Position numbers and translations under genes: made by a program. Below are positions 7,140 through 50,879 of a DNA stretch of 64,000 bases, one piece after another (the stretch's first letter is position 1; every line of letters starts with the position of its first letter). The stretch is from a virus. Where the stretch lies: IMG/VR virus record IMGVR_UViG_3300027365_000009, positions 1 to 64,000 of that record, one strand, 5' to 3'. Under the pieces are notes generated by a model that did not search any database, was not told the DNA's origin, and saw nothing but the letters and a program-made list of their open reading frames with translations.

Positions 7140-8459
7140 ATGGACAAGCGGGACTATTTCTTATGGGCGCTAAAACAAGGCGCGGGTAAGAAGCGGGCGT
7201 GGGTGAACAGCATATTCGCCGTCACCGAACCCCCGAATGACGAAAGGATTTTAGGGCGTTGGTACTGGAATGAGAAGGGACAACGCGTGGCCCGTGATGC
7301 CGATACGGGAGACGAGTTTGTTATCAATACCAAACGCAAGGCGGATCAGCCGCTGTGTGACTTCCGTGAAGCCTTTGTGCTTCAGTCAGGAGACCTTCCC
7401 AACTACCAGGGGGATGGGCCGCTCACGACCACGTATGGGAATGTCTTCGTCAATTACCTACTTCTGGTGCTTCCGTTTGGCGACCTTTTCCCTTTCCAAA
7501 CCGGACACTTTTCCATCAAGAAGATTGAGGAGGAAATCCTCGGGCGTCTCATTGATAACCCGGAAGACGACGATGGAGTCTCTCACGCCCCAGACGGAAA
7601 ACTCTACGTCAGGCAGTACCTGCAGTTTTCTGAGTATGCCCTCTCCCTGGTTGCCTACGCGTCCATGTCGGTGGTCTCTGTCACACCGAAGGCACTCCAG
7701 TCCAATCCCAAGGCCCGTAAGCGCCGACAGGAGCTGTTAGAGGAGAATAAGGACAAACTCACTGATCCGATTGTGGCAGCCAAGATTGGTAAGGAGATGG
7801 AAGCCCTTGATCGTGAATGGTTGGAAGGTGATGCCGCGTATGACTTCTACGAAGCCAAGGGCAAGAAAGGCTTCGGGGCGGTTCGTAACAAGCTCTTTTA
7901 TCTGTTCGGTAGTGAGTCCGCCTTTACGGATGGCTCTGCGGTAACTCTGATTACCAAGTCATTGGAGGAGGGCATTGACCCCGAGAAACTCCCAGAGATG
8001 ATCAACGGTCTTCGTTACGGGTCTTACAGTCGCGGGTCTCAAACTCAGTTAGGTGGGGAATCCACCAAGACCATCTACCGGATGGTGGGGACGATTCGCA
8101 TTGAGGAAGACGACTGCGGTACCTCGTTGGGCATCCCAGTACGGATTAAAGAAGACAACGCCAAAGGGATGGTGGACTTTTGGGTGATTGATGGGAAACA
8201 ATCCGTGTTGCTCACCAAAGACAACGTCCAGTCGTATATTGGTAAGGATCTCTTACTGAGAAGTCCGGTCACCTGTAAGACCGAAGGACGCAACGTGTGT
8301 CGGCGTTGTGTGGGTGAGGCCCTAGCGGAGTTACCCGATGGTATTCCAGCAGCGGCTGCTGCAGTAGGAGGAATTTTCTTGAACAGTATGCTCAAAAAGA
8401 TGCACTCAGCTGGCGCTGTTAATACAAATAAATGGGATAGGACCAAAAGGTTAACCTAA
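7140..8459 (+). CDS. Virion RNA polymerase beta' subunit, C-terminal part (phiKZ gp80-like)
   Basis: Beta' C-terminal motifs IEEDDCGT, LRSPVTCK and VCRRCVG (Zn site), followed by LKKMH. 439 aa. Confidence 0.9.
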   Translation: MDKRDYFLWALKQGAGKKRAWVNSIFAVTEPPNDERILGRWYWNEKGQRVARDADTGDEFVINTKRKADQPLCDFREAFVLQSGDLPNYQGDGPLTTTYGNVFVNYLLLVLPFGDLFPFQTGHFSIKKIEEEILGRLIDNPEDDDGVSHAPDGKLYVRQYLQFSEYALSLVAYASMSVVSVTPKALQSNPKARKRRQELLEENKDKLTDPIVAAKIGKEMEALDREWLEGDAAYDFYEAKGKKGFGAVRNKLFYLFGSESAFTDGSAVTLITKSLEEGIDPEKLPEMINGLRYGSYSRGSQTQLGGESTKTIYRMVGTIRIEEDDCGTSLGIPVRIKEDNAKGMVDFWVIDGKQSVLLTKDNVQSYIGKDLLLRSPVTCKTEGRNVCRRCVGEALAELPDGIPAAAAAVGGIFLNSMLKKMHSAGAVNTNKWDRTKRLT

Positions 8460-8520
8460 TGCCTTAGGAGGTTTATTTCTTAATGCTTGCATCCATGAGC
8501 GATGTATAAAAATACTGAGC

Positions 8521-8554
8521 GTCTCCTTAATATGTACCCATCTGTTAAGGAGAC
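8521..8554 (+). promoter_or_regulatory. RBS-sequestering hairpin of the GIY-YIG gene with TATG in its loop
   Basis: Perfect 10-bp stem gtctccttaa/ttaaggagac containing AAGGAG. ATG at 8562. Confidence 0.75.
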
Positions 8555-8561
8555 CTCGTAG

Positions 8562-9914
8562 ATGAATTTCGATCATTTCCCGAAAGGTTGCGGCATCCTG
8601 GAAGTAACCCATACCCCCACCGGTAACTTCTTTTACGCCGTGGCGGATTCACTCCAATATACGGCGCGTCATACATACAACGTACTGCAAATCGGCTCTC
8701 ACCACAATCCCTCATTGCAGGAACTGGTGTCTAAGACAGGTATCGACGCCGTTGAGTTTGATTTCATCAAATGCGAAGACCGTCAGGAGGCGCGGGCAAA
8801 GCGCCATGAGTTACTGATCGAACATTACACTAACCCGAAACTACTCAATGGGAGCGACTTCCCTAAAGTCCCTGGTGCGTACCGCATCATCCATCGCCCC
8901 TCAGGGAAATTCTTTGTGGGTCACTCGGTAGATGTCGTCAAACTCCACAAGCACAACATGATCATGCTTCGCGCGGGAAACCATCGCAACGAGGCATTTC
9001 AACAAGTGTTTAATGAGAGTAACGGCTCGGACGACTTTACGTTTGAGTTTATCCGAACCCAAGACGGAAAGGAAGCCCGCGAGTACGCCCAAAAGTGGTT
9101 TGACGAATACTGGGACACGGGACTGATCCTCAATAACATGAAGGTTAATAGGGTGAAACGCGAGATACCCGGTGCGTACAAACTGATCCATAAACCCACA
9201 GGCCGTTTCTACGTGGGCAGCACTAAGGATATTCCTTGGCGCATTACGTCACATTTCAACCAAATGGAAACGGGGAAACACCAAAACCGGTTTCTCCAGG
9301 AGGTATGGAATGGGGACCGCGATGAGTTTGTTGTTGAGGAGTTTCCAACTAGGGACCGGGAAGAAGCCTTCTTGCTCGAACAAAAAATGATTGATGAAAT
9401 GGGCGGTGACGAGAACTGCGTGAATATCGCCAAGAATGCTAAGTCGCCTATTAGTAGTATTTTGCTTTCTGAAGAGGTTATTGCGAAGCGTAAAGCGTCA
9501 CTAAAGAAACGCCAAGAATCTCCAGAATACCGTAAGCAGATGGGTGAGAGGATGCGGGAGATGTGGAGTGACCCCGAACGTAGAGCCAACCGTCGCGGTG
9601 CGGGGAATCCCTTTGCCAAGCAAATCTGCATTGGCCCACGTTATTTCGGTTCCGTTAAGGATGCAAGTCGGACACTCGGGGTGTCGGAGTTATTACTCCG
9701 TAATCGAGCAAATGATCAAAATAGTCCGGGCGTGTTCTTCCCTGAGAATCCATTACCGTTGGATGTACTGAAAGCCAATAACCGCGAAGTCGAAAACAAA
9801 CCAAAACTTTACCACCTATATTGCCACTTTCTAAAAGAATATTACGGCATCGAACCAGAAGGAAATGTACATCATGGCGCAGGGGATTATCGGTCGGGTG
9901 AGGGGGTATCTTAA
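8562..9914 (+). CDS. Free-standing homing endonuclease with three tandem GIY-YIG-like domains and NUMOD-like tail
   Basis: GILEVTHTPTGNFFY, GAYRIIHRPSGKFFVG and GAYKLIHKPTGRFYVGST, each followed by H-N--LQ/FQ. C-terminal GAGNPFAK and YFGSVKDASRTLG. Confidence 0.88.
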   Translation: MNFDHFPKGCGILEVTHTPTGNFFYAVADSLQYTARHTYNVLQIGSHHNPSLQELVSKTGIDAVEFDFIKCEDRQEARAKRHELLIEHYTNPKLLNGSDFPKVPGAYRIIHRPSGKFFVGHSVDVVKLHKHNMIMLRAGNHRNEAFQQVFNESNGSDDFTFEFIRTQDGKEAREYAQKWFDEYWDTGLILNNMKVNRVKREIPGAYKLIHKPTGRFYVGSTKDIPWRITSHFNQMETGKHQNRFLQEVWNGDRDEFVVEEFPTRDREEAFLLEQKMIDEMGGDENCVNIAKNAKSPISSILLSEEVIAKRKASLKKRQESPEYRKQMGERMREMWSDPERRANRRGAGNPFAKQICIGPRYFGSVKDASRTLGVSELLLRNRANDQNSPGVFFPENPLPLDVLKANNREVENKPKLYHLYCHFLKEYYGIEPEGNVHHGAGDYRSGEGVS

Positions 9915-10140
9915 CCGACGTCAGTGGGCAAAATATCACTTCAACAGTTACATGAACCGTACCTGGGATCGGATGTGTCCCTTGTGTCACAATTGGTATC
10001 GGCGTGATCGTATGACGGCAAGCTTCTGTTTAGTCGGAACGCGCTTAGAAATTCGCTGTCGGTGTGGGTGTACGGCGAAATGGAACGTGGAACAGTTTCA
10101 CGCCACCTTAGACAGTGCTCATGCCGCGAAGGCGGCTTAA
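9865..10140 (+). CDS. Small zinc-ribbon protein
   Basis: CPLC and CRCGC motifs. Overlaps the end of the endonuclease gene. Confidence 0.5.
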   Translation: MYIMAQGIIGRVRGYLNRRQWAKYHFNSYMNRTWDRMCPLCHNWYRRDRMTASFCLVGTRLEIRCRCGCTAKWNVEQFHATLDSAHAAKAA

Positions 10141-10159
10141 TCCATAAAGGAGTGTTACC

Positions 10160-11272
10160 ATGAGTAATGAAACCCAAGATCCGCAAGGTGAAACTCTAGA
10201 AGAACTCTCTCCGGTCGAGGCAGCACGTGACGCATTCTCCCTCCCGGAAGCGTGGACCGATCCGCAGGTCGAACAGTGGATCAAGACCATGGAGAACGAA
10301 GAGGAAGAGACCACCGAAGACGGCGTGTTCCGCTTTGATCCGACTCGCGCACAGCGTAAACCCGCCGACTGGGAAAGCAAGGAACTCCTCGCATACCTGA
10401 AAGGCGCACTGATTGGTGTCTCCAATAAACGCCGCAGTGAACTAATCAATGAATACCGCCGCCGGGAGGATCTGGAAGAGGCTTGGAGTGACCAGCAGGT
10501 CCTGGATTACTTCCAGAAGGGTATCACGCCGGAGCAGACCTCTTATGGCGCGTGGGTCTATGACCGGACGCGTCCCCAGCGTCAAGCACAGGACTGGAGC
10601 ACTGAAGAGCTCATGTCCTGGGCCGAAGGGGAGCTCAAAGCGGTGGGTAAGACCACCGACATCAAGCTGGCGATTGAACTCAAGAAGCGCCACACCCTGA
10701 ACGCAGAGGCGGATACCGTAGGCGCGATTCTCGCGGCCTATAACCGCCAATTCGGCGACGATCAACCCGAAGAGGAGGCTACCCCCGTGTCGGAACAGGA
10801 AGGCCTCCTGGAGCGGGCTGAGACGACCTCGACCTATAATGGAGCATTAACCGAAATGAACCTGAGTTTTATTGAAGGCGTGTTGGACCGTTACGTGGCG
10901 GCCGTGGCGCCCGGTAAGCAGATCACCGAAGCCGAAGGGGGTAAAGCCCAACGCGATCTGGACAACCTGTTCAACTACGTCATGCGCATGGAAGGCCCTG
11001 CTCTCCCCGAAGCCCTGGACATGATCAAGCGCCGGGTAGTGAAGGAGCGTGAGGGGGTGTTCTCACCCAGCTATGCCTACCGCTTTACCCACCTCCTCAA
11101 AGGGGACCGTAAGGCTCAGCAGCGTCATGTGAACCTGATTGAGCTGTTCCTGATCATCACTGACCGCAATGCCGGCGCTAAGCGTAAGCAGATTGACATC
11201 CGCCACATGCTTTCCGGTTACTCTCCTGCGGTGAGTGATCGCCTGACCGACTATTTCAAGAACTACGCTTGA
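10160..11272 (+). CDS. Hypothetical protein with internal tandem duplication
   Basis: AAGGAG RBS. Repeats EAWTDPQV..DPTR..DWESKEL and EAWSDQQV..DRTR..DWSTEEL. Confidence 0.75.
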   Translation: MSNETQDPQGETLEELSPVEAARDAFSLPEAWTDPQVEQWIKTMENEEEETTEDGVFRFDPTRAQRKPADWESKELLAYLKGALIGVSNKRRSELINEYRRREDLEEAWSDQQVLDYFQKGITPEQTSYGAWVYDRTRPQRQAQDWSTEELMSWAEGELKAVGKTTDIKLAIELKKRHTLNAEADTVGAILAAYNRQFGDDQPEEEATPVSEQEGLLERAETTSTYNGALTEMNLSFIEGVLDRYVAAVAPGKQITEAEGGKAQRDLDNLFNYVMRMEGPALPEALDMIKRRVVKEREGVFSPSYAYRFTHLLKGDRKAQQRHVNLIELFLIITDRNAGAKRKQIDIRHMLSGYSPAVSDRLTDYFKNYA

Positions 11273-11340
11273 TAGTATAGAGAGCGTTTATGGACCGTTA
11301 TCTGAGTGATTCGCTACCGCTCAGGGATTACGGCATACAC

Positions 11341-11367
11341 GCCCTTCCTCCGGGAAGGGCTTTTTTT
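11341..11367 (+). terminator. Rho-independent terminator
   Basis: GC stem gcccttcc/ggaagggc followed by T7. Confidence 0.85.
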
Positions 11368-11385
11368 GTTAATAGGGGTCAACGA

Positions 11386-11694
11386 ATGGGAACTCGTTTA
11401 TCAGCTGTGCTTCACCAGCCCATTCCGGGCATCCTCTGGCACTGGTGTCCCGGCTGTCGAGAACGCCATCCGATTCATGTTCGTCACCCCGACAGCAATA
11501 CCAAGGTGACCGCGTTATGGTGCTGGGACGGTAATGTTGACCAACCCACGTTTAACCCGTCGATTCGGGTTTATAATCGAGATGGCAGTACCCAGTGTCA
11601 CTACTTTATCCGTCAGGGAAACATTCAGTTCTGTGGGGATAGTGACCACCACTTAGCGGGTAAGACGGTAACGCTTCCCCGTTTACCTGAGTAA
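11386..11694 (+). CDS. DUF6527-like Cys/His metal-binding protein
   Basis: CPGC..H, W-WDGN...PTF-PSI and CHYFI..G-I-FCGDS-H pattern. Start moved to the ATG after the terminator. Confidence 0.7.
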   Translation: MGTRLSAVLHQPIPGILWHWCPGCRERHPIHVRHPDSNTKVTALWCWDGNVDQPTFNPSIRVYNRDGSTQCHYFIRQGNIQFCGDSDHHLAGKTVTLPRLPE

Positions 11695-11721
11695 AACGAA
11701 AGTCATATTAGGAGATAGATA

Positions 11722-12531
11722 ATGCGTACACGGTTTTTACGCGGGACGACCGCGGAGAATAATGGGTTGACGCTCCCGGAAGGGGAATTGTCGATTGACT
11801 TAGAGAAAAAGGCAGTCCGCTTACATGATGGCCAAACCCTGGGTGGGTTTGAAGTGGTGGGGACTCAATCGGTAATGAGTGGAAGTCAGATAATCGCTAC
11901 TGATGGAGTTGTCGATTTTTATGGGGAGGTCCCCGACACTGAGCTTTTTACAAGGACTGAGTTATCGACTATTACAGGAATGTCTTCGGGAGTTGAGCTT
12001 AGCGATGCCGGTTTCTCTTGGCTTAAGTTTGGATTTAACGGAAAAATTTTATTTGTTGCCAGCAAAAATGTCCGCAGTAATGTGACCGTAAACGAGCTTT
12101 ACAATTTAGGTTTAGTATACGGGACTGACACAGTAGGGGCATTCCCACCGACAACCGGTGTTAACCAGAACACCTTGTTAACTAAAAATAACCTTACCTT
12201 CAAGGTTCGCCTCCTCAATGGTTCAGTCAACGACCCTAGCGGAGCTGAGCGTAACGTTAACGTGTTTACCGATGGCCCAGGTTCCGAATGGGACGAATTG
12301 TTGAAACGTGTACATTCCGATTACTCTCCTGGCGGTGACTGGCCTACATACACCAACGAATTTCTAGACATAAAACTAAACCGATACAGTTTTGTGAAAG
12401 AGACCCATACACACACCACCTATTCCCGCATAATGAGGGGCTATCACGGTTTACTCGGTATGTCGTCAAACATACCGCAATGGAGATCATCAAGCGGATG
12501 CTGGCGCCCTGTCCTCGAACTCGTTCAATAA
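11722..12531 (+). CDS. Second Mtd_N plus CLec-like virion protein (paralogue of 84..956 and of the DGR target)
   Basis: RFLRGTTAENNGLTLPEGELSIDLE..RLHDG..GGF, WLKF and C-terminal CWRPVLELVQ. Confidence 0.8.
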   Translation: MRTRFLRGTTAENNGLTLPEGELSIDLEKKAVRLHDGQTLGGFEVVGTQSVMSGSQIIATDGVVDFYGEVPDTELFTRTELSTITGMSSGVELSDAGFSWLKFGFNGKILFVASKNVRSNVTVNELYNLGLVYGTDTVGAFPPTTGVNQNTLLTKNNLTFKVRLLNGSVNDPSGAERNVNVFTDGPGSEWDELLKRVHSDYSPGGDWPTYTNEFLDIKLNRYSFVKETHTHTTYSRIMRGYHGLLGMSSNIPQWRSSSGCWRPVLELVQ

Positions 12532-35258: not shown

Positions 35259-35277
35259 TTTTGACATCTACATTATC
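35259..35277 (+). promoter_or_regulatory. Candidate early (virion RNAP) promoter
   Basis: ttttgacatctacattatc, identical at 47328-47346. TACATTAT resembles the phiKZ early motif TATATTAC. Confidence 0.65.
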
Positions 35278-39779: not shown

Positions 39780-40226
39780 ATGATCATTGGATCAGTATAT
39801 GCCGGAGATATCTTTGCTACTGGAATGCAAACGATCACATGTCCTACCAACTGCGTCGGTGTCATGGGGAAAGGATTAGCAAAGACAACAAAAGAACGCT
39901 ATCCTAACGTATGGCGGGTTTATCGGCGCGCTTTTGAAGAAGGAGGATTACATCCTCACCGCCCACTTATCGCTACGGCATACCCTGGTCGCCAGGTTTT
40001 ATGTTTTCACACGAAACGACATTGGCGCGATGCGTCAAAGGTAGACGATATTGAGATGGGACTCCGTTACCTCGTCGATAATTATCGGGTAATGTACATT
40101 GATTCGATCGCCATCCCAGCCATTGGGTGTGGGTTGGGCGGCCTTGATTGGGTGACTCAAGTTAAGCCACTTATCTGTCATTACCTTGACCCGATAGACC
40201 TTCCGGTTATGTTATATGAACCATAA
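39780..40226 (+). CDS. Macrodomain protein (DarG/TARG1-like)
   Basis: GDIF, NCVGVMGKGLA, F-TK-HWR--S and SIAIPAIGCGLGGLDW motifs. Confidence 0.9.
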   Translation: MIIGSVYAGDIFATGMQTITCPTNCVGVMGKGLAKTTKERYPNVWRVYRRAFEEGGLHPHRPLIATAYPGRQVLCFHTKRHWRDASKVDDIEMGLRYLVDNYRVMYIDSIAIPAIGCGLGGLDWVTQVKPLICHYLDPIDLPVMLYEP

Positions 40227-40650: not shown

Positions 40651-42186
40651 TTAAGCCCACCAGGCAACTTCATCGTCAGTACCCAGGGCGCCACCACCGG
40701 GCATGGCGAGGGTCACCTCATAGTCTTTATCAATGTCCCATGGAATCGTCCCAACGGGTTTAAAGGGAAGAACGAAATATTGGTCTTTTGGATCAGTTAC
40801 GGCGTTACGATGCTTGCCCCGTTGTACCGTTAAGAACGACTCGCCATTAATCACGACCTTATGAATGAAAAACTCAAGGTCGGGTTCTTGGCCCAAACGA
40901 CGACATCCATCGTAGTAGCCTTTGTTGGCGACGACCTTAACAAAGTCCTCAACATTTTCACGGGTAAGCTGTAATGCGTCCGAACTGAGCTGATGTGGTG
41001 TGATGCAAGTAATGCCTCGCGTGGCAGTGTAATTTCGGAGTTGGCGGAACAATAGCCGGATATCATCACCCGCCACTTTAGCGTCAATCCCGGCCTTCGA
41101 TACCATGTTTAGGTAATCGATGAAAAGACCAATGATTTCGTACCCGTCTGCATAAAGACCATCCAGGAACCCCTTCAGAGATGCCGCACTGAAATCGGTC
41201 GGATCAAAGCGATCCATACGGATTTCAAACCCGGTTTCTCTTAACCGCTCCGAAACATAAGCCGATGCTTCATTGACGTCAACTTCAGAGTCAACTACCG
41301 CTTCTCCGGTGTCATTTTCCTTGAGGTATTTATAAATCCACAGAAGGTTATCTGGGATCTCGTTTTCGAAAGTGATGAACTGCAATAGCGGTTTACGGGT
41401 GCTATCACGGAGATAGGGTTTATTAAACAGCGCTGCATGTGTGAAGAGTGAGAGCATAAAACCGGATTTGAAGTGATGTTGTAGACCACCAACAACAGCA
41501 AACTCCCCGCGTTTAATCGCACCAACCTTACCCAGTGCCCGGTTAAGACCCTTCCAACCAAACTGCAGAGCACCTTCAGTCGACATTGTCACTTTCACGT
41601 CCTCAAAGAGCTTTTCGAGTTCCTCGGGTTCGGCAAAGTCCATGCTACCCATCAACGCCGGATGCTTCTGCCGGCTACGGGCTTTGATAAACGGTTCCAG
41701 TCGTTCTCCCAGCATGGTAACCTCTTCCACGATATCATTCACCTTACCGCGCTGGAAGACCATACGGTGGTGGGTCTCTTTTAAGAGGGAGACAATCTTT
41801 TCATCGTTTAAGAACTGGGACAAGTTGTTACGGTATGACTGAATTATCTTTACGGTCTCTTTCGGAGACTCGTGTTTTTCCATCAATGCCGTCATCACCG
41901 CTTCATACAGGAAGTTCTCTTCCCGACAAGCGACTTGAACCTGCTGAAGCACTTCAGTCTCACTGGGGAAGTTATCGTCTCCGCGACTGTTGAGCCACAT
42001 AACCAGATTGCGTAGTTCAAGGAAGGTTTGACGACTATGGTCGTGATCCACGCTAGCTTCGGGGATCGGCAAGGTCTCAAGAATATTATTGATCAACTCA
42101 TTAGAGGGGGAGGTGGCGACCCCATCGCGGTGTTCGAGACACAGTAGGCTCGTACACGTAATTAATAATTGCTTAGGTGAAAACAT
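40651..42186 (-). CDS. dnaB: DnaB-like replicative helicase (phiKZ gp118-like)
   Basis: Variant Walker A GGLQHHFKSG, ITFEN, FIDYL, TPHQLS and RGKHR. Divergent from the capsid genes as in phiKZ. Confidence 0.88.
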   Translation of the reverse strand: MFSPKQLLITCTSLLCLEHRDGVATSPSNELINNILETLPIPEASVDHDHSRQTFLELRNLVMWLNSRGDDNFPSETEVLQQVQVACREENFLYEAVMTALMEKHESPKETVKIIQSYRNNLSQFLNDEKIVSLLKETHHRMVFQRGKVNDIVEEVTMLGERLEPFIKARSRQKHPALMGSMDFAEPEELEKLFEDVKVTMSTEGALQFGWKGLNRALGKVGAIKRGEFAVVGGLQHHFKSGFMLSLFTHAALFNKPYLRDSTRKPLLQFITFENEIPDNLLWIYKYLKENDTGEAVVDSEVDVNEASAYVSERLRETGFEIRMDRFDPTDFSAASLKGFLDGLYADGYEIIGLFIDYLNMVSKAGIDAKVAGDDIRLLFRQLRNYTATRGITCITPHQLSSDALQLTRENVEDFVKVVANKGYYDGCRRLGQEPDLEFFIHKVVINGESFLTVQRGKHRNAVTDPKDQYFVLPFKPVGTIPWDIDKDYEVTLAMPGGGALGTDDEVAWWA

Positions 42187-42345
42187 GTAAGTCGTGTCCT
42201 TACCGGTTACACGAAACGGAAAGAAAGAATTCGTTACCTCGCTCAGGCACATCATAAGAAACTCAGGTAGTTTTCCCCATATGTGTATGAAACGTCTCTT
42301 TTCTGTCCCCATGCTATGTTAGCTGTATAAATCGTGGAGTTACCT

Positions 42346-42873
42346 ATGGTCCGCTTACTGGTGGTACCTGAGGCCATCATGACCATGCTCATTCGAGAGG
42401 GGATACCCTACTCGATCCTCAAAGATGTTGAGTCGATGAGTGGGGCATTGTCCGTACATGATATGGCCGAAATCCATATGGCTCAAAAGCAGTTCCCTTT
42501 TGAGTTTGATCAATCCCTTGAAATTCAATTCGCCCGATCGCCGCTGGTGGAGTTAGCGGAATCGTCGGAGAGTCGTACACTCTATGAACGACTTAATGAG
42601 CGTATTGAGACATTAACACTCCGCGAAAGCGCCGAGCGTGAGTCGTTTACCCCTGTCTATACGCTATATCCTGTAGACGAGACACTTTGGGTCGCAGTGC
42701 TGCAGAGGCAGGACTCACGGGAAGGCGATCCACATCGCGAATTACTCTCGTCCAATCACGCGTTCTTTGACGCGTTAATGGCGCAAACCTTACACCTTCA
42801 TTCGTTCGAACGAGTGTGTAGCACTAACCTCTTCACCTATTATCTGAAAGCTCTTCCCGCACAAGCTGCGTGA
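42346..42873 (+). CDS. Conserved protein preceding the major capsid gene (phiKZ gp119-like position)
   Basis: GGAG RBS, synteny. Confidence 0.6.
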   Translation: MVRLLVVPEAIMTMLIREGIPYSILKDVESMSGALSVHDMAEIHMAQKQFPFEFDQSLEIQFARSPLVELAESSESRTLYERLNERIETLTLRESAERESFTPVYTLYPVDETLWVAVLQRQDSREGDPHRELLSSNHAFFDALMAQTLHLHSFERVCSTNLFTYYLKALPAQAA

Positions 42874-42939: not shown

Positions 42940-45210
42940 ATGAGTAACCTCAAGAAGCTGTTTGCTGCTCGTCACGACGCGATGAGCAAAGACTTCCAGA
43001 TCGGCGAGTTCGTCGCCTCCCTGGAGTCTCACTCCGATACCGTGGGCAGCCCCCTGGCTGGCGGTAAGGAACTGGTCGGTCGTATCTCCACCGAAGCGTT
43101 CGGTGATATCGGCACCGAAGAAGCGGCCTCCTGTCAGGAGCTGTACGCTTCCATGCACGAGATGCTCGAGCGTGAAGGCTTCGAGTCTTTCAATGCCAAG
43201 CGTGGCGCCGACGCCCAGCGTGTGGGTGAGAACCAGGTCCTGTCCGCGACCCTGGCTGCCATCGCCGGTAACGACGAAGTTCGCTACAAGCGCTCCCTGC
43301 AGGGCATGCGTAGCGTCCCGCAGTCCAACAACCCGAACGTCATCGCCATCTCCCCGATGATCGACGGCCCGCACGGTCAGATGCCCGTTCTCTCCGAGAA
43401 CACCGGTCTGGAGAACTACAACGAGAAGTCCCAGCGTGACTTCCGTGTGATCTCTGTGGCCTACAACCTGGCCGCTGCTCGTCAGGACGCCTTTGGCGAA
43501 GCCCTGTATCCCACCGTGGTGGTCAACCCCACCGAAGGCGGTGTGACCCAGAACCTGACCTACGCTGCTGTCCTGAAAGACGTGTTCCACGAAGTCACCG
43601 GTGCGCTGTTCGACACCCGTGAAGTGAACATGGTCGAAGCCTTCCGTGACCCGTCCGTCCTGGAAGATGCCAGCACCAAGCTGGTGCCCGTGGTTGACGA
43701 CGCCGACAAGAACGCTCGTGTGTTCGTTGATCCCGCCGTTATCGCACCGCAGGACATCGAGCTCGAGAAAGGCGGTACCGTCAAGACCGCTCCGCTGAAG
43801 ATCGGTGAGAAGTTCGACCTTATCGGTGTGTCCAACCGTCAGCAACTGATCGCTGGCAACCTGCTGGACGTATCCGACACCATCGATCCGGCCATGCGCC
43901 TGAAGCACCTGTACGTGCGTCTGGGTGGCACCACTCCGAAAGTGGTTCGCTTCACCGTTGAGCGTATGCCCACCGCGGTGTTCCAGCCCAGCCTGACCAA
44001 CGACACCCGTCTGGCGCAGCTGAACTTCACCACCGAAGACCTGGTCGTGTCCGCCTCCACCAAGGCCATCGATGGTTCCACCAACGCGGCTATCGACGAG
44101 ATCGTCAACCGCAGCTGGACCATGCGGCTGTCCGTGGGCGTTTCCGGTTCCGTCTCCCTGTCCAAGGGTGATGCCTGGATCAACGCTACCCCGGTCGTGA
44201 TCGAAGACATCTTCGACGACGCCGGTCAGAAGCTGGACAAGTCCGCTGGCGATGCCAAGACCGTGGCCGATGCCTTCGGTGACATGACCGTTCTCGGTTA
44301 CGACCTGGATGCACGCTTCACCAACTCCAACCGTCGTGAGCGTGGCCAGCTGGTGCAGACTCGTACTCTGCAGTTCCGCTACCCGATCCCGATGCACAGC
44401 CCGATCACCCTGCCGATGTCCACCATGGACGAGTCCGGCCCGGGCGACGTGGTCAAGACCCTGACCGTGGCCACCAACATCCGCAACAGCAACAACGCGG
44501 TGACCCGTCTGCTGAACTACCTGGCTCAGCTGCGCGAAGTGGTGCGTTCTGGTTACGACCGTCCGAAATTCGGTGCTGTGGAAGGTGCCCTGTCCGCCAT
44601 GATCCGTCCGACCTACCGGTCTGGCACCCTGGATCTCGAGCAGGCCATCGACACCGTGCGCTCCAAGGATCGTTGGGAAGACGTCTGCGAGACCATCCTC
44701 AACACCATCAAGAGCCTGCTGTTCCCGGCCTACCGTGACTCCAACATCGAGGCGGCCTTCCAGACCGTCACCGGTAATGCTGATGAGCGTCCCAAGTTCA
44801 TCATCGCCACCGATAAGGAGATCGCTCACTACCTGATGCGTGTCGGCGACGACCGTACTCTGGGTTCCTACCTGAAGTACGACATCGTCAGCACCAACAA
44901 CGAGCGCTTCGACGGTAAGATCGTGATCGTGCCGACCCGTGAGAACCCGGTTGAGAACGACATCCTCAACTTCGGTCAGTTCTACTACGTGCCGACCATC
45001 ATCGCGGACCTGCCGATCAGCCGTAACGGTCAGATCTCTCGTGAGATTGCTGCCGTGCCGTTCAACCTGCACGTCAACAACATCCCGTTCGCTATCGAGA
45101 TCGACGTTGTGGGTCTGGACAAGGTGATGGGTTCTTCTCAGTACAACAGCCTCCCGGGCTTCCAGACTGAGCAAGTAGAAATCACCGACACCACCACTAC
45201 TTCTCCCTAA
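42940..45210 (+). CDS. Major capsid protein (phiKZ gp120-like)
   Basis: 756 aa with very strong codon bias. GLE-NYNEK cleavage site, YNL-AARQD-FGE--YPT, NSNRRERG and H--NIP motifs. Confidence 0.92.
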   Translation: MSNLKKLFAARHDAMSKDFQIGEFVASLESHSDTVGSPLAGGKELVGRISTEAFGDIGTEEAASCQELYASMHEMLEREGFESFNAKRGADAQRVGENQVLSATLAAIAGNDEVRYKRSLQGMRSVPQSNNPNVIAISPMIDGPHGQMPVLSENTGLENYNEKSQRDFRVISVAYNLAAARQDAFGEALYPTVVVNPTEGGVTQNLTYAAVLKDVFHEVTGALFDTREVNMVEAFRDPSVLEDASTKLVPVVDDADKNARVFVDPAVIAPQDIELEKGGTVKTAPLKIGEKFDLIGVSNRQQLIAGNLLDVSDTIDPAMRLKHLYVRLGGTTPKVVRFTVERMPTAVFQPSLTNDTRLAQLNFTTEDLVVSASTKAIDGSTNAAIDEIVNRSWTMRLSVGVSGSVSLSKGDAWINATPVVIEDIFDDAGQKLDKSAGDAKTVADAFGDMTVLGYDLDARFTNSNRRERGQLVQTRTLQFRYPIPMHSPITLPMSTMDESGPGDVVKTLTVATNIRNSNNAVTRLLNYLAQLREVVRSGYDRPKFGAVEGALSAMIRPTYRSGTLDLEQAIDTVRSKDRWEDVCETILNTIKSLLFPAYRDSNIEAAFQTVTGNADERPKFIIATDKEIAHYLMRVGDDRTLGSYLKYDIVSTNNERFDGKIVIVPTRENPVENDILNFGQFYYVPTIIADLPISRNGQISREIAAVPFNLHVNNIPFAIEIDVVGLDKVMGSSQYNSLPGFQTEQVEITDTTTTSP

Positions 45211-45240
45211 CCCTTAGGTTAGTGTGAAACAGTGATAATG

Positions 45241-45265
45241 GAGGCCGCCTTCCGGGGCGGCCTCT
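45241..45265 (+). terminator. Terminator hairpin after the capsid gene
   Basis: gaggccgcc-ttccgg-ggcggcctc followed by tatgcc. Confidence 0.75.
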
Positions 45266-45327
45266 ATGCCATATTTTACTATTGGTTATGTTCTTATGAG
45301 AAACAATCACTTATACGAGGTGTGGTT

Positions 45328-45639
45328 ATGTTTATCTTTCCAGTCAGGTTATGCGGCGTTCGGTATTTGTCACTCCCCAATGGACGTTATTTAAAATACG
45401 ATGATAATGAAAGTACATTCCTGAACATTGATGCTCCACCGAGCGGTGCCTATATTGTGGACGTCGAAAGACACCTTCAGGGCACCGATGGATTCTTACT
45501 GGAATGTCCTAAACAAAACATCTGGTGTGTTAATACCAAGGGAGAATGTTTCAACATCGGAAAATCTTTATGCGTTTGTGGTCCGGTAGGTGGTCGGGAG
45601 CCCACCATTGTTAAAACAAAACCAAACGACGGCTACTGA
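45328..45639 (+). CDS. Hypothetical protein
   Basis: GAGGT RBS before ATG 45328. Confidence 0.55.
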   Translation: MFIFPVRLCGVRYLSLPNGRYLKYDDNESTFLNIDAPPSGAYIVDVERHLQGTDGFLLECPKQNIWCVNTKGECFNIGKSLCVCGPVGGREPTIVKTKPNDGY

Positions 45640-45688
45640 ACGATCGTTTTATCAAACATGATATGACACCCATTTAAGGATTCGTATC

Positions 45689-46102
45689 ATGTTACGTTTA
45701 ATGAAACAACTCTTTGCCCACCCTTCGGTTGTTGATCCTCTGTATGAACGACTCACAGGGAAAGAAGCCGACTATTTAACCGACGACGATAGGACCCAGG
45801 GACTCATTGGGGTGATGCGCACCTATGAGCCCTTTAAGCTCATTCAGCGCTTCTTAGCACTCGTAGTGATCCTTACCTACGTGGGAGTTTGGATACTGAG
45901 CGTTGGCTTGTTCGCCTGGGCAGGCATTGCGTCACTGGCAGGTCACGACACCACCATTTTGGTTAGTATCGCAGATCGGATCACCACCCTCAATCGAGAA
46001 CTGTTAGAGTGGCCCGCCCTGTTGGTCCTCTCTCTGTACTTTGGTGGGGGTGTGGCTGAGGGTATCTTGGAACGCTGGAAAACACGCCGTCCCAGTAAGT
46101 GA
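45689..46102 (+). CDS. Two-TM membrane protein (holin-like candidate)
   Basis: PFKLIQR-LA, two TM segments, YFGG motif and a basic C-terminus. Confidence 0.55.
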   Translation: MLRLMKQLFAHPSVVDPLYERLTGKEADYLTDDDRTQGLIGVMRTYEPFKLIQRFLALVVILTYVGVWILSVGLFAWAGIASLAGHDTTILVSIADRITTLNRELLEWPALLVLSLYFGGGVAEGILERWKTRRPSK

Positions 46103-46142
46103 AACTAAAAATACTCGGAGCCTCTATGTAATGAGGGAAACT

Positions 46143-46442
46143 GCCCCGGTGGTGGAATGGTAGACACAGGAGACTTTGGTAACTGAGCCTCCATGGGGAA
46201 ACCTGTGGTTGCACACACTCTCAAATTCAGGGAAACCTTCCAGTTCGGCTGATGGCAATCCTGAGCGAAGCCTCGACAGAGGAACGTGCAGAGACTAGAC
46301 GGGAGTGGGCTACGTCCAGTAATGGATATGCTTGAGGGATAGTCCAGACCCCAAACGCATTCAGGTGCGGTAGTGAAAGCTATAGTGGGTAAGAAAATCT
46401 CCCGACCGTATGGTCGTGCCGATTCGAGTTCGGCTCGGGGCA
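46143..46442 (+). tRNA. trnL: tRNA-Leu(UAA), intron-containing (exons 46143-46176 and 46394-46442)
   Basis: Acceptor gccccgg/tcggggc plus discriminator A. D-arm gtggaatggtagacac, spliced anticodon arm ggaga-CTTAAAA-tctcc, long variable arm cgacc-gtat-ggtcg, T-arm gccga-ttcgagt-tcggc. No encoded CCA. Confidence 0.93.
46177..46393 (+). ncRNA. Group I intron (trnL/IC3-like, 217 nt) in the tRNA anticodon
   Basis: P AAATTCAGGGAAACC, Q AATCCTGAGC, R GTGCAGAGACTAGA and S GATAGTCC. P1 ggagactt/gagcctcc, terminal G, inserted at U^AA. Confidence 0.93.
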
Positions 46443-46465
46443 CCCTCCCGATTTCAAAGAACCCA

Positions 46466-47218
46466 GGAAGCTTGAAGGTGGATCACTAGGGATAGTCCGT
46501 CCAACTAAGAACGAGCGGATGGCGTAGGTGTGGAACACGCTTCGGGGACAGCCCCACACAATGCGATCGAAACCTTCACTTTCCCATCCTCAAGATTGTC
46601 GGTTGTCTTGAGGATTACGCATAAACCGACTAGTTATCGGTAAGCCGCATGCCAGGTGCTGAAAAAAAAAAGCACCCTCAACAACGGTGTGGGGTAAAAG
46701 ATACACTCCCGCCATTCCGATAGCGAAAGGGAGAGGTCAGGTATGCTGGTCCGATACATACCGACCTAGGAAGCTGAGACTGGACAAGTCGCGGGGCGTC
46801 TTCCTTTAACGTGGGAAGTTATTGGGCGACATAGGGCGGTGAGTAGGCTGCTGTTGGGTGAATCACCCGATGTCAGTACGAAAGCATCCCATCTCGCGGC
46901 GGGCCTAATCAACTCCGGATGTTACTTAAGTAACGCGGAGTGATAGTGGTACCACGTCGTGTGGGCCACAGATCCTGTGTTCCAGCACAGTTGTTGATGA
47001 ACATGCGGTTGACTGGAGAACCGCATACAAGGCACTAGAACGGTGAGTTGGGAGCCTGACCTAATGCACCTGGGTAACTGGGTAGCGCGATAATGCACCG
47101 TTTAGGAGAGCGTTCTCCCTTAGAGGCAGGTACTGCATTGGGAGATTGTCCGGAAGAAGGATTGACCGGGAAACCGGAGATCGATGGGGTGAGGTAACTC
47201 ACGCCCTACAGCCGGACA
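46466..47218 (+). ncRNA. Candidate large structured non-coding RNA (or tandem RNAs)
   Basis: No ORF of 60 aa or more in any frame, many nested helices and GNRA loops, lies between the tRNA and a terminator hairpin. Confidence 0.7.
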
Positions 47219-47231
47219 TTATCCGCATAAT

Positions 47232-47252
47232 ACCCTCCCTACGGGGAGGGGT
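47232..47252 (+). terminator. Terminator-like hairpin closing the RNA locus
   Basis: accctccc-tacg-gggagggg flanked by gcataa and ttatgt. Confidence 0.65.
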
Positions 47253-47327
47253 TATGTTGCCACCATAACAAAAACACTACCCACATAACGGGTAGGGACT
47301 ATGCCGTCACTTAGGTAAGTCCATTCA

Positions 47328-47346
47328 TTTTGACATCTACATTATC
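47328..47346 (+). promoter_or_regulatory. Candidate early promoter of the nvRNAP-subunit operon
   Basis: Second copy of ttttgacatctacattatc. Confidence 0.65.
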
Positions 47347-47385
47347 TTCGTGACCGTACCGAATGTACTGACATGGAGATTGACG

Positions 47386-48048
47386 ATGTCTTACCGTAAA
47401 TTGGGGCTGGAGGCCTATTACCTCCCGACACTTAAGTCGTACCGCCCGACACCGACGCAGCACAGCATCACACTGCGTGAAGATGACCTGCTGGATGAGG
47501 TGTTTGAGTGCCTCGATGACCTCCCTATGTGGGTCGCTACCCAATGGCTGATGCAATTCCGCAATGGTGCCCGCACCTTGGTGGCAGAGAAGCCCCAAGA
47601 GACTCCCCAACCGGAGGAGGAAATTTCCGCCGACGAAGAGCCCATCCCCCGTCTCGACGATGAAACTGATGAGCCCACTCCCGATGTGGACCACTATACC
47701 TTTCGTATCCAATGTGCCATGTCGATGGAGTCAGCCACTCAGCTGCGCAATACCATCCACGACCTTCGTCCCACTGAGGACCCACCGAATGAAAGATCTT
47801 ACCAAAAGGGAGATCCCCTCCAAAAATTTACCGGGCGGGCAGGGGAAATCCACCACCTCTGTCCGCCCATCGACACCTATCGTCAAGTCGTCCATCGCGA
47901 AACGGCCCAAGCACGAGACCTTGTTGGGAAAACGTCGCCACGGTCGCAAGCGGTACGGAAGGACGTTCCGCCCCCTTCCGTAGTTCCTAAAGCGTTGGAC
48001 TTGACACTCCTGGATGTCCGTATCGAGGTTAACCCACCCAAGGATTAA
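47386..48048 (+). CDS. Hypothetical protein
   Basis: GGAG RBS before ATG 47386. Confidence 0.6.
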   Translation: MSYRKLGLEAYYLPTLKSYRPTPTQHSITLREDDLLDEVFECLDDLPMWVATQWLMQFRNGARTLVAEKPQETPQPEEEISADEEPIPRLDDETDEPTPDVDHYTFRIQCAMSMESATQLRNTIHDLRPTEDPPNERSYQKGDPLQKFTGRAGEIHHLCPPIDTYRQVVHRETAQARDLVGKTSPRSQAVRKDVPPPSVVPKALDLTLLDVRIEVNPPKD

Positions 48049-49253: not shown

Positions 49254-50879
49254 ATGGATAACGTGTTATTGGAGCGGGTTAAGGCGGTCACGCCGAAGTT
49301 TAACCCGTCCGTGGCGAACGGTCTGGCAGTCGAGCACCTCATGGCCCGTTCTCCCGAGACGGGCACGCTTTCTGTCGTGTCGTACATTGACCGTCTGATA
49401 CACATCACTCAGGAGCTGTTTCCGGAGGGTCTGGTCTATGAGGGCAGTCAGGTCTGCAGTCCGGTGCAGCAGTTCGAGGAGGTAACGCGTGAGTACAATT
49501 CCAAGCGGGTAGCCAACATCGCCAAACACGACACCTTCATGGTGAAGTACCAGTTTTCTTTTAAAGGAGAAATGCTGTTTCCACGCTATATTCTCCTTCC
49601 CTTTGTTCGGGACGGGAGTATTCTTCACCTTAACGGGGCGCTGTACAATATCTCCCCGGTATTAGCTGACGTGGGTTTCTCTGTCCTCAAGGGCAGTATC
49701 TTTATTCCTTTTCAGCGTACGAAACTGACGTTCAATCGGGTAGACCATGCATTTTATGCCGATGGGCGTCGTGAAATCGTGTATGTGATTTGGAGTACGA
49801 TTCATCATGAGAAAAACAAGCTCAACAAGCGGGATCTCGATAACCGACGGGAAATCGAGTCATGCCTTGCCCATTACTTCTTTGCGCGATATGGAGTGAC
49901 GGAAACCTTCCGTCAATGGGCGAATGCCAACGTCATGGTGGGGTGGAAGAAAGACTTTCCCCTCAAGGACTATCCTCGTGACCACTACACGATCTTTGAG
50001 TCCACTAACTTAAAGGATCGTCATCCCACAGGTGAGTTGGTGGTGGTCGTGCCGAAGAGCGACGACACCGACTTTGTGCGGATGTTGGTCGGGGGATTCT
50101 TCTACGTGGTGGATACCTTTCCGGATCGTTTCCGTGAACCGGAATGGGTGGACAATACGATTCACTGGCAGCTGCTGCTCGGGAATGTGATCTTTGGTGA
50201 CTTCCAAGGGTCGGGTACCCTTCAAGAAGACGTCGAGAAACACATGATCTCCATTGAGAACTATCTTGATGAGATCACCCGGGATGACCTACGGGGTCGG
50301 GATATTTACGTGGACAGTGTCTGGGAGTTGTTTCACGTGATCATGACTGACCTTTCCGGACATTTCTACCAAACCAGCAGTGATGAATCCTCCATGTACA
50401 ATAAACGCATGACAATCCTGCGCTACGTCATGGAGGAGTTCAATAACGTCATCTCCAAGTTTGGTTACAGCTTCCAGTCCAACCGTGAAAAGGTGTGGGA
50501 TGCCCAGAACATCAACGATAATCTCAAACACCATTTCAAACTCAACACCTGTGTGTCGCGCCTGACCAGTACCCACGGTGAGATCAACACTGTGAGTTAT
50601 CCGGGAGACAATAAAATGTTCCGGATTACCTGTATGGCGATACCGCAGGATAAAGCCAAGAAATCGAAAGGGTATGGGAAGGGGCTGATTGAAGACGCCT
50701 CACGTCTCCTCCACTCTTCGATTGCCGAAGTCGGTCAGTTCAACAACCAACCGAAGAACAATCCGGATGGGCGCAGTCGTCTGAATCCCAATGTACACAC
50801 CACGGTGGAGGGATTGATTCAACGTAACCCAGACCGGAAAGTATTGATCGACTCCGTCCAAAAGCGCATGATGCGTTAA
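49254..50879 (+). CDS. Non-virion RNA polymerase beta subunit, N-terminal part (phiKZ gp123-like)
   Basis: 541 aa. PKFNP-VANG, LPFV, ISPVLAD, LHSS-AEVG and P----DGRSRLNP (beta region D-like), synteny after the capsid gene. Confidence 0.85.
   Translation: MDNVLLERVKAVTPKFNPSVANGLAVEHLMARSPETGTLSVVSYIDRLIHITQELFPEGLVYEGSQVCSPVQQFEEVTREYNSKRVANIAKHDTFMVKYQFSFKGEMLFPRYILLPFVRDGSILHLNGALYNISPVLADVGFSVLKGSIFIPFQRTKLTFNRVDHAFYADGRREIVYVIWSTIHHEKNKLNKRDLDNRREIESCLAHYFFARYGVTETFRQWANANVMVGWKKDFPLKDYPRDHYTIFESTNLKDRHPTGELVVVVPKSDDTDFVRMLVGGFFYVVDTFPDRFREPEWVDNTIHWQLLLGNVIFGDFQGSGTLQEDVEKHMISIENYLDEITRDDLRGRDIYVDSVWELFHVIMTDLSGHFYQTSSDESSMYNKRMTILRYVMEEFNNVISKFGYSFQSNREKVWDAQNINDNLKHHFKLNTCVSRLTSTHGEINTVSYPGDNKMFRITCMAIPQDKAKKSKGYGKGLIEDASRLLHSSIAEVGQFNNQPKNNPDGRSRLNPNVHTTVEGLIQRNPDRKVLIDSVQKRMMR

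Follow-up and report, generated by a model that had tools for sequence, protein, structure and literature searches.

Large, folded RNAs of bacteria and phages such as GOLLD, ROOL, OLE and raiA are rare and each of them has opened new biology, the latest example being RNA-only nanocages: GOLLD and ROOL form nanocages, and the pRNA of phage phi29 forms rings. The pRNA (RF00044) is organised around a three-way junction and exhibits two loops whose complementarity covaries between relatives; it is 120-174 nt in length, stems from small Bacillus podophages, docks on the portal and is essential for packaging. The phiKZ-like phages, which possess their own polymerases, a protein 'nucleus' and RNA export, are not known to require an RNA in packaging. 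The species 1 and 2 RNAs of phage T4 are non-coding RNAs that are made on the same precursor as the phage tRNAs and are freed by tRNA processing enzymes; they are ~140 nt in length, with no complex conserved architecture reported. GOLLD (RF01998) is a phage-encoded RNA of ~800 nt that is often linked to tRNAs or located just downstream of them, and its function is not known (10.1101/2024.12.08.627333).

The stretch of DNA analysed here, which we refer to as the window, comprises the first 64 kb of a 150-kb virus record in IMG/VR. By gene content and gene order, the window derives from a phiKZ-like jumbo phage and covers part of its genome: it encodes a divergent DnaB-like helicase (40651-42312), a gp119-like vertex protein (42334-42873), the phiKZ-type major capsid protein (42940-45210; PF25620, E 4e-222) and a gp123-like RNA-polymerase subunit (49254-50879), the order in phiKZ being helicase, gp119, gp120, gp121, gp122 and gp123. 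Upstream of the helicase we also observed a 148-aa macro-domain protein (39780-40226; PF01661, 6e-10) that may act on ADP-ribose. Between the capsid gene and the gp121-like gene, directly after a tRNA-Leu(UAA), lies an ORF-free and strongly folded region of ~810 nt on the + strand (46446 to ~47258). A sequence-only reading of this DNA had described the region after the tRNA as ORF-free and densely paired, and both observations are borne out: ARAGORN confirmed the tRNA, no stop-free stretch in any of the six frames exceeds 59 aa, and the single-sequence minimum free energy of the + strand (-308.8 kcal/mol) lies beyond that of dinucleotide shuffles (-272 +/- 7.7; z = -4.8), with the - strand reaching -280.1 (z = -4.0). 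The 197 substitutions between the window and its closest homologue (L002, see below) are split 63/73/61 over the codon phases and the indels measure 1, 2, 13 and 55 nt, which together with the 59-aa maximum rules out a coding gene or pseudogene. As a candidate start for a small ORF, an SD-AUG look-alike (GGGAG-N8-AUG) within the most conserved hairpin of the region was rejected, since its 'codons' fall in a covarying hairpin and give unrelated peptides.

The region does not correspond to a known RNA family. Using cmscan on 45600-47800 against all 4227 families of Rfam 15, we obtained no match at E <= 10 within 46446-47258, including the models for GOLLD, ROOL, pRNA, OLE, HEARO, RNase P, tmRNA, 6S, raiA and group I/II introns; at this threshold, the segment yielded a group I intron and two chance matches only. 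ARAGORN did not detect a tmRNA, and the earlier statement that hallmarks of tmRNA, RNase P and group II domain V are missing agrees with the model searches. The homologues L002, L047 and L048 were equally devoid of a family match to the RNA (tRNAs aside), both at gathering level and at E <= 10. Our literature search did not find a paper describing this RNA, the paper on the RP12 genome is silent on the region, and the GenBank records of the Ralstonia phages RP12, RP31, FLC4-3B and FLC1-1B carry no annotation there. The likeness to GOLLD is one of layout and not of homology: both are ornate, phage-borne and tRNA-adjacent RNAs of ~800 nt with a conserved 3' part, a variable 5' part and covarying kissing loops, whereas the sequence and helices of the new RNA are distinct, it is carried by phiKZ-like jumbo phages that infect Gram-negative hosts, it also exists in short forms of ~300 nt, and the GOLLD covariance model does not match the window, L002 or the RP12-type loci at E <= 10. 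ROOL (RF03087) is likewise a large, pseudoknotted RNA of phages and prophages near tRNA islands with no known protein partner, but again no model match was obtained, and the 5' and 3' parts of ROOL are intertwined whereas the 3' core is a separable module here. Lacking a match to the family covariance model, the one objective criterion of membership available, the RNA is not a member of GOLLD or ROOL, and the same holds for pRNA. Thus, of the two options offered from sequence alone, membership in these classes is not supported, whilst an undescribed structured RNA is, given homologues with compensatory changes; judged by sequence comparison, it represents a family of large ornate phage RNAs that has not been described before and that resembles GOLLD in layout. 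The T4 species 1 and 2 RNAs share with it that they are tRNA-linked, non-coding and phage-borne, but there is no homology.

In the search for homologues we started from relatives of the capsid protein in IMG/VR (29 loci), among which nhmmer identified the region in L002 only (88% capsid identity), where the tRNA-Leu(UAA) ahead of the RNA (11074-11806) has no intron and differs in sequence. L002 does not exhibit the segment 47103-47222 of the window and carries a 55-nt insertion elsewhere. BLAST searches of whole related records then revealed a 25-nt identity in L004 and L026, which led to a non-coding stretch of ~300 nt ending in the same type of terminator. Model R1, a covariance model built from the three-way junction that these sequences share, additionally detected L003 and L009, and a pattern scan with the invariant hairpin added L047, which is Ralstonia phage RP12, and L048. 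The known carriers therefore comprise type-1 long forms (window and L002), type-1 short forms of ~300 nt (L003, L004/L026 and L009) and type 2 (the Ralstonia phages and L048), with type 2 present as an unannotated region of ~800 nt in the culturable phages RP12 (L063:4000-4820, equal to AP017924.1 129684-130504), RP31, FLC4-3B and FLC1-1B. The window scores 81.6 bits with R1, 70.7 bits with the refined model R2 and 63.6 bits with the hairpin-pair model R3. R2 finds a single copy per positive genome; one loose second match to the hairpin at position 141457 of the record was judged to be due to chance.

Other routes to homologues were less productive. A blastn search with the whole region against 50,697 phage records returned matches to the group I intron only, and the junction alone gave no match against phage records; exact 18-mers from the 5' domain occurred in IMG/VR solely in the L002 contig, apart from four matches attributed to chance by nhmmer, and the downstream 223-aa protein matched only itself. 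Hairpin-pattern scans of metagenomes and GTDB genomes did not add new members, returning known or near-identical contigs (L052, L053, L054 and L056). The bacterial and most of the metagenome matches to the pattern were rejected as ankyrin-repeat coding sequence with weak model scores: the ankyrin-repeat motif ELGADPN is encoded by the DNA word GAGTTGGGNGCTGAYCCYAATG, which explains why this word keeps appearing in bacterial genomes. We note L074-L084, L050, L051, L055 and L057-L061 as false positives for the RNA hairpin.

Comparison of these homologues showed that other jumbo phages do carry compensatory base changes. The consensus fold of the window and L002 reaches -176.2 kcal/mol versus -105.8 +/- 6.5 (z = -10.8) and contains 31 compensatory pairs versus 14.1 +/- 3.2 (z = 5.3), with forty column shuffles that keep the conservation pattern serving as control. 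The reverse complement gave a shuffle-like result (-114.1 and 19 compensatory pairs), and with the + strand lying far beyond the shuffles this identifies + as the RNA strand. For type 2 RNAs the consensus fold (-212.5 versus -151.9 +/- 8.8; z = -6.9, + strand) and the compensatory pairs (26 versus 11.1 +/- 3.2) tell the same story; the RP12-type RNA is a conserved, structured + strand RNA in its own terminator-flanked unit that has its core in common with the RNA of the window. A natural strain variant present in freshwater metagenome DNA contigs differs from the window at 23 listed sites, 13 of them unpaired, and pairing is kept at nine of the ten paired ones. It exhibits two double compensatory changes (C46589U with G46612A; U46590C with A46611G), and several C>U or A>G changes generate G-U combinations that pair on the + strand only. 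Two low-depth 'joints' to 47226, with 28-nt sides at a terminator-like repeat, were dropped as chimeric. We conclude with high confidence that 46446-~47258 is a real, conserved structured RNA.

The part common to all forms is a 3' core in which a pair of hairpins, complementary in their covarying loops, precedes a three-way junction, closed off by the terminator. The junction (47039-47102, +; models R1 and R2) is made up of a closing helix (47039-45/47096-102), a near-invariant hairpin (47047-65) and a GNRA-capped hairpin (47066-86), and was found by covariance model in L002, L003, L004/L026, L009, RP12, FLC4-3B, FLC1-1B and L048. The near-invariant hairpin reads GUUGGGAGC(C)UGACCCAAU, or GUUGGGAGC(C)UGACC(C/U)AAU when stem and loop are written out, whilst sequence is free to vary, with pairing kept, in the closing helix and in the second hairpin, which bears a GNRA cap in type 1. 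Over eight distinct sequences, in an alignment fitted to the model, 97.5% of the cells are paired, 12 of the 21 pairs are altered on both sides, and the covariation score is 0.54 compared to 0.19 in shuffles; slid registers, used as control, pair just 26-46%. The helix aacggtg/caccgtt at 47039-45/47096-102, one of those predicted from the single sequence, thereby gains strong covariation support. A tRNA-like reading of the junction was discarded: there are two arms only, and the loops are unlike T or anticodon loops.

Upstream of the junction, hairpin A (46975-46990, +; loop UUCCAG) is present in all five type-1 sequences with a covarying stem, and hairpin B (47003-47026, +; loop UGACUGGAGA) shows two compensatory pairs in its stem relative to L002. 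The two loops are complementary, with CUGGA of hairpin B (47013-17) facing UCCAG of hairpin A (46981-85), and the combination UCCAG/CUGGA of the window, L002 and L004 is replaced by UCCAA/UUGGA in L003 and L009. This pairing, in an alignment likewise fitted to the model, is 93% kept across relatives and includes a GC->AU switch and, at the neighbouring pair, UA<->CG switches; the loop-loop covariation thus comprises two positions in a set of five sequences. Complementary loops (CUCG or CUUG with CGAG) are also present on the hairpin pair just before the junction in type 2, with less variation.

Such loops raise the question of whether they pair within one molecule or between molecules. In the latter case the RNA could be a self-assembling, RNA-only multimer, with the A and B loops joined 'hand in hand' into rings or cages and the linked tRNA as possible cargo. 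This fits the covarying complementarity and the presence of several GNRA loops, as well as a set of traits shared with GOLLD: a length of ~800 nt, a conserved 3' core, a variable 5' half, tRNA linkage and a phage-borne gene (10.1101/2024.12.08.627333). Furthermore, the kissing loops of GOLLD and ROOL were first seen by covariation and then proved to be intermolecular (10.1101/2024.12.08.627333). However, hairpins A and B are merely 12-25 nt apart, so that the kiss could equally well be intramolecular, the short forms measure merely ~300 nt, and neither sequence nor model similarity to GOLLD, ROOL or pRNA was found; we regard assembly into a multimer as unlikely. The pRNA offers the same combination of a three-way junction and complementary, covarying loops in a phage RNA, but the RNA described here is longer (300-810 nt), gives no RF00044 match and, being absent from close relatives (see below), cannot be an essential motor part.

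The remainder of the long form is less conserved. Its 5' expansion domain (46446-46971, +), which is restricted to long forms and homologous to L002:11077-11575, comprises ~10 helices, among them 46586-96/46605-15, 46633-43/46715-24, 46798-810/46818-30, 46847-60/46866-77 and 46912-25/46930-41 (+), with one to six compensatory pairs each; as the long-form sequences number two, several 5' helices are provisional. The hairpin 46656-46677 is missing in L002, which points to a variable linker, and the length of its A-rich loop (46661-70) differs between strains, with 4-nt deletions in freshwater variants. The helix arms, the three local hairpins and the terminator that had been listed from the single sequence are all found where they had been placed, although the long-range pairings fared differently upon comparison with L002. 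The pairing tgaaggt/accttca (46473-79/46572-78) gained weak support, L002 providing one compensatory change and one mismatch, whilst tcaacaac/gttgttga (46678-85/46990-97) is impossible there owing to deletion of the 5' arm, and cccgcc/ggcggg (46708-13/46898-903) is not kept but gives way to an alternative that is (46785-95/46893-903). The pairing tgtccgg/ccggaca (47147-53/47212-18) does exist in the window, where it closes an insertion domain on the 3' side (47103-47222, +) with GAAA- and GUAA-capped hairpins in a single-sequence fold, but this segment is specific to the window: in L002, the junction leads directly into the terminator.

With regard to its expression, the RNA directly follows a tRNA-Leu(UAA) that occupies 46142-46445 and was detected by ARAGORN solely with introns allowed, not in default mode. 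Its 5' exon (46142-46176, +) and 3' exon (46394-46445, +) are separated by a 217-nt group I intron in the anticodon loop (46177-46393, +, bounds from ARAGORN); this intron (RF00028, 51 bits, E 1.7e-11) is the single gathering-level Rfam match of the window, with the model match spanning 46167-46366, inside the tRNA. In phiKZ, the late-promoter consensus is TATG with G as +1, and middle promoters contain an additional AAanTTACc near -24 (PMC4666361). By pattern scan, we located a putative promoter motif of the form AAATACTC-N8-TATG at 46109-46128 (+), 13 nt upstream of the tRNA. The same motif, as AAATACCC-N8-TATG, lies ahead of a tRNA fragment in L002, short forms start at AAnTTTACT-N12-TATG (a spacing of 12 nt versus 8 nt in the window), and type 2 starts at a TATG-containing stretch after its own upstream terminator. 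At the other end, an intrinsic terminator (47233-47258, +; hairpin 47233-47250) reads CCCUCCC-UACG-GGGAGGG followed by UUAUGUU, and an equivalent terminator is found at the end of every homologue. The next gene has a promoter-like element of its own, TTGACATCTACATTATC (47330-47346, +), which marks the downstream boundary of the RNA unit. This 17-mer occurs in two exact copies in the window (35261-35277 and 47330-47346) with a chance expectation of none, both upstream of + strand genes, and L025 has a near copy of it after the terminator of the capsid gene; the 17-mer probably represents a class of phage promoters. As a separate observation, the terminator hairpins of these phages regularly have UUAUG(U/C)C behind them (window 45238-45267 and 47233-47258; L004:8305-8340 and 9322-9350; L009:9303-9330), so that the terminators abut a TATG motif resembling the phiKZ late-promoter core and termination may be coupled to re-initiation.

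Neither a terminator nor a promoter-like site was found between the tRNA and the large RNA, and the order of tRNA then RNA is kept in L002 despite the tRNA there being a different, replaced one. In combination with the promoter-like element of the next gene, the simplest reading is a tRNA-RNA precursor cut by tRNA-processing enzymes, and we consider co-transcription with the tRNA and release from it likely, the promoter and processing assignments being motif-based. A search of sequencing runs for the sequence listed no RNA run, and our literature search found no transcriptome of an RP12-type phage. One could also regard the RNA as a cis-acting element, i.e. a long structured trailer or 3' UTR with a role in stabilising or processing the tRNA, the tad3 mRNA or the capsid operon transcript, or as an insulator: it always ends in the terminator of its own unit, the long forms are fused to a tRNA, and no terminator separates the tad3-like gene from the RNA in short forms. 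Against this, the core is found behind three unrelated contexts (tRNA, tad3, and its own terminator plus promoter in RP12), the short forms have a TATG motif at their start, and a stabiliser would require far less than 300-800 nt and a fold that includes an invariant hairpin, a three-way junction and loops that covary, which makes a role in cis quite improbable.

The RNA resides in a variable slot that is bounded by the terminator of the capsid gene and the gp121-like gene. This slot is empty in L025; in L003, L004 and L009 it holds a Tad3 homologue (anti-Thoeris; PF25185, 5e-31; L003:8999-9619, L004:8401-9051, L009:8386-9031) and then the short RNA; in L002 it contains a PL14 polysaccharide lyase with a CBM2 domain (8363-9565), Acb3 (anti-CBASS; PF25187, 7e-50; 9639-10412), an HNH-motif ORF, a tRNA and the long RNA; and in the window two small ORFs, the intron-bearing tRNA and the long RNA. 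The varied contents indicate that the RNA is accessory cargo, accompanying anti-defence genes in some relatives. A Tad3-like protein was considered as a co-conserved partner and rejected, as it is absent from the window, L002, RP12, L048 and L025.

In L002, we further observed that the segment 10405-11073 contains the promoter-like motif followed by a truncated 5' half of the window-type tRNA-Leu (~10449-10485), a 162-aa ORF (10492-10980) with an HNH-type motif (DHIDRN..N) that lacks a Pfam match, and an intact, intron-less tRNA-Leu(UAA) of different sequence. It looks like a free-standing homing endonuclease has swapped the intron-bearing tRNA for its own copy. The site thus behaves as a mobile-element hotspot, with a group I intron in the tRNA of the window and a free-standing HNH-motif ORF accompanying the replacement tRNA in L002, and the large RNA itself might be a ribozyme or the remnant of a mobile RNA, such as an intron-like or self-cleaving RNA tied to this activity. 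We view this as very improbable: no intron or ribozyme family was matched, the short forms and RP12-type copies have no adjoining tRNA, intron or endonuclease (the latter copies lie ~1.2-1.5 kb downstream of a tRNA gene or tRNA cluster in RP12, RP31, FLC4-3B, FLC1-1B and L048), and purifying selection on the structure runs contrary to a decaying remnant.

The distribution of the RNA across phages is also that of an accessory element. Applied to 25 related jumbo-phage records and phage fnug, R2 gave five matches, all in known carriers of the RNA; it did not match the close relative L025, 20 other phiKZ-like genomes (PhiPA3, 201phi2-1, PA7, Psa21, Phabio and others) or fnug itself (species Phikzvirus phiKZ), which indicates that the RNA is dispensable for the basic life cycle. 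The capsid proteins of the window and RP12 share 34% identity and both phages possess the RNA, whereas phages at 53-64% do not, and hence the distribution is patchy.

A location of this kind would fit a role in counter-defence, in which the RNA, present in large amounts, would act as a decoy or sponge and titrate an immune nuclease, a sensor or a signalling molecule of the host. Such a strategy would be apt for nucleus-forming phages, whose cytoplasm-exposed molecules are RNAs; Tad3 lies directly upstream of the RNA in three relatives and Acb3 in the same slot in L002, the slot is empty in L025, and a patchy distribution is typical of accessory anti-defence cargo. However, the argument is one of guilt by association alone: the genes upstream of the RNA in the window are not recognisably anti-defence, one of them encoding a 137-aa protein that resembles a small membrane or holin-like protein, the RP12 neighbourhood offers nothing informative on function, and the invariant hairpin is unlike any known defence target. 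We rate a decoy or sponge against host immunity as improbable when taken as the specific function.

Taking these results together, the explanation we favour overall, at slightly better than an even chance, is a stand-alone, trans-acting RNA with a partner-docking 3' core and a host-specific accessory role. The gene would produce a stable, highly structured non-coding RNA of ~810 nt from the + strand, as a stand-alone gene in a subset of phiKZ-like jumbo phages. A phage RNA polymerase probably transcribes it from the TATG-type promoter ahead of the intron-containing tRNA-Leu, giving a single tRNA-RNA precursor that would end at the terminator (47233-58) and from which 3'-end processing of the tRNA would free the large RNA. 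Its functional centre would be the conserved 3' core, in which the paired-loop hairpins precede a junction that displays the near-invariant hairpin, and this hairpin could be the docking site for a conserved protein or RNA partner, making the RNA a trans-acting scaffold or decoy; the 5' portion may be a lineage-specific expansion, as in GOLLD. That the RNA is a partner-docking scaffold or decoy in particular is a tentative proposal, somewhat short of an even chance. Since the locus is an accessory slot outside the core genome, the role is most likely host-specific, in takeover or counter-defence, and not essential for assembly. Rather doubtful, by our estimate, is a jumbo-phage RNA class with no dedicated protein, in which the RNA would be either a self-assembled, tRNA-carrying multimer or a decoy against cytoplasmic RNA-directed immunity, with the invariant hairpin as recognition element.

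The RNA described here would add a further class to the large RNAs and the first that is linked to phiKZ-like jumbo phages. With copies in the sequenced and culturable Ralstonia phages RP12, RP31, FLC1-1B and FLC4-3B, its expression, structure, partners and phenotype are directly testable, and as the same slot otherwise harbours genes directed against Thoeris and CBASS, a counter-defence role for the RNA is worth testing. Should the multimer or the decoy reading prove true, the RNA would represent a new mechanism in the conflict between phage and host.
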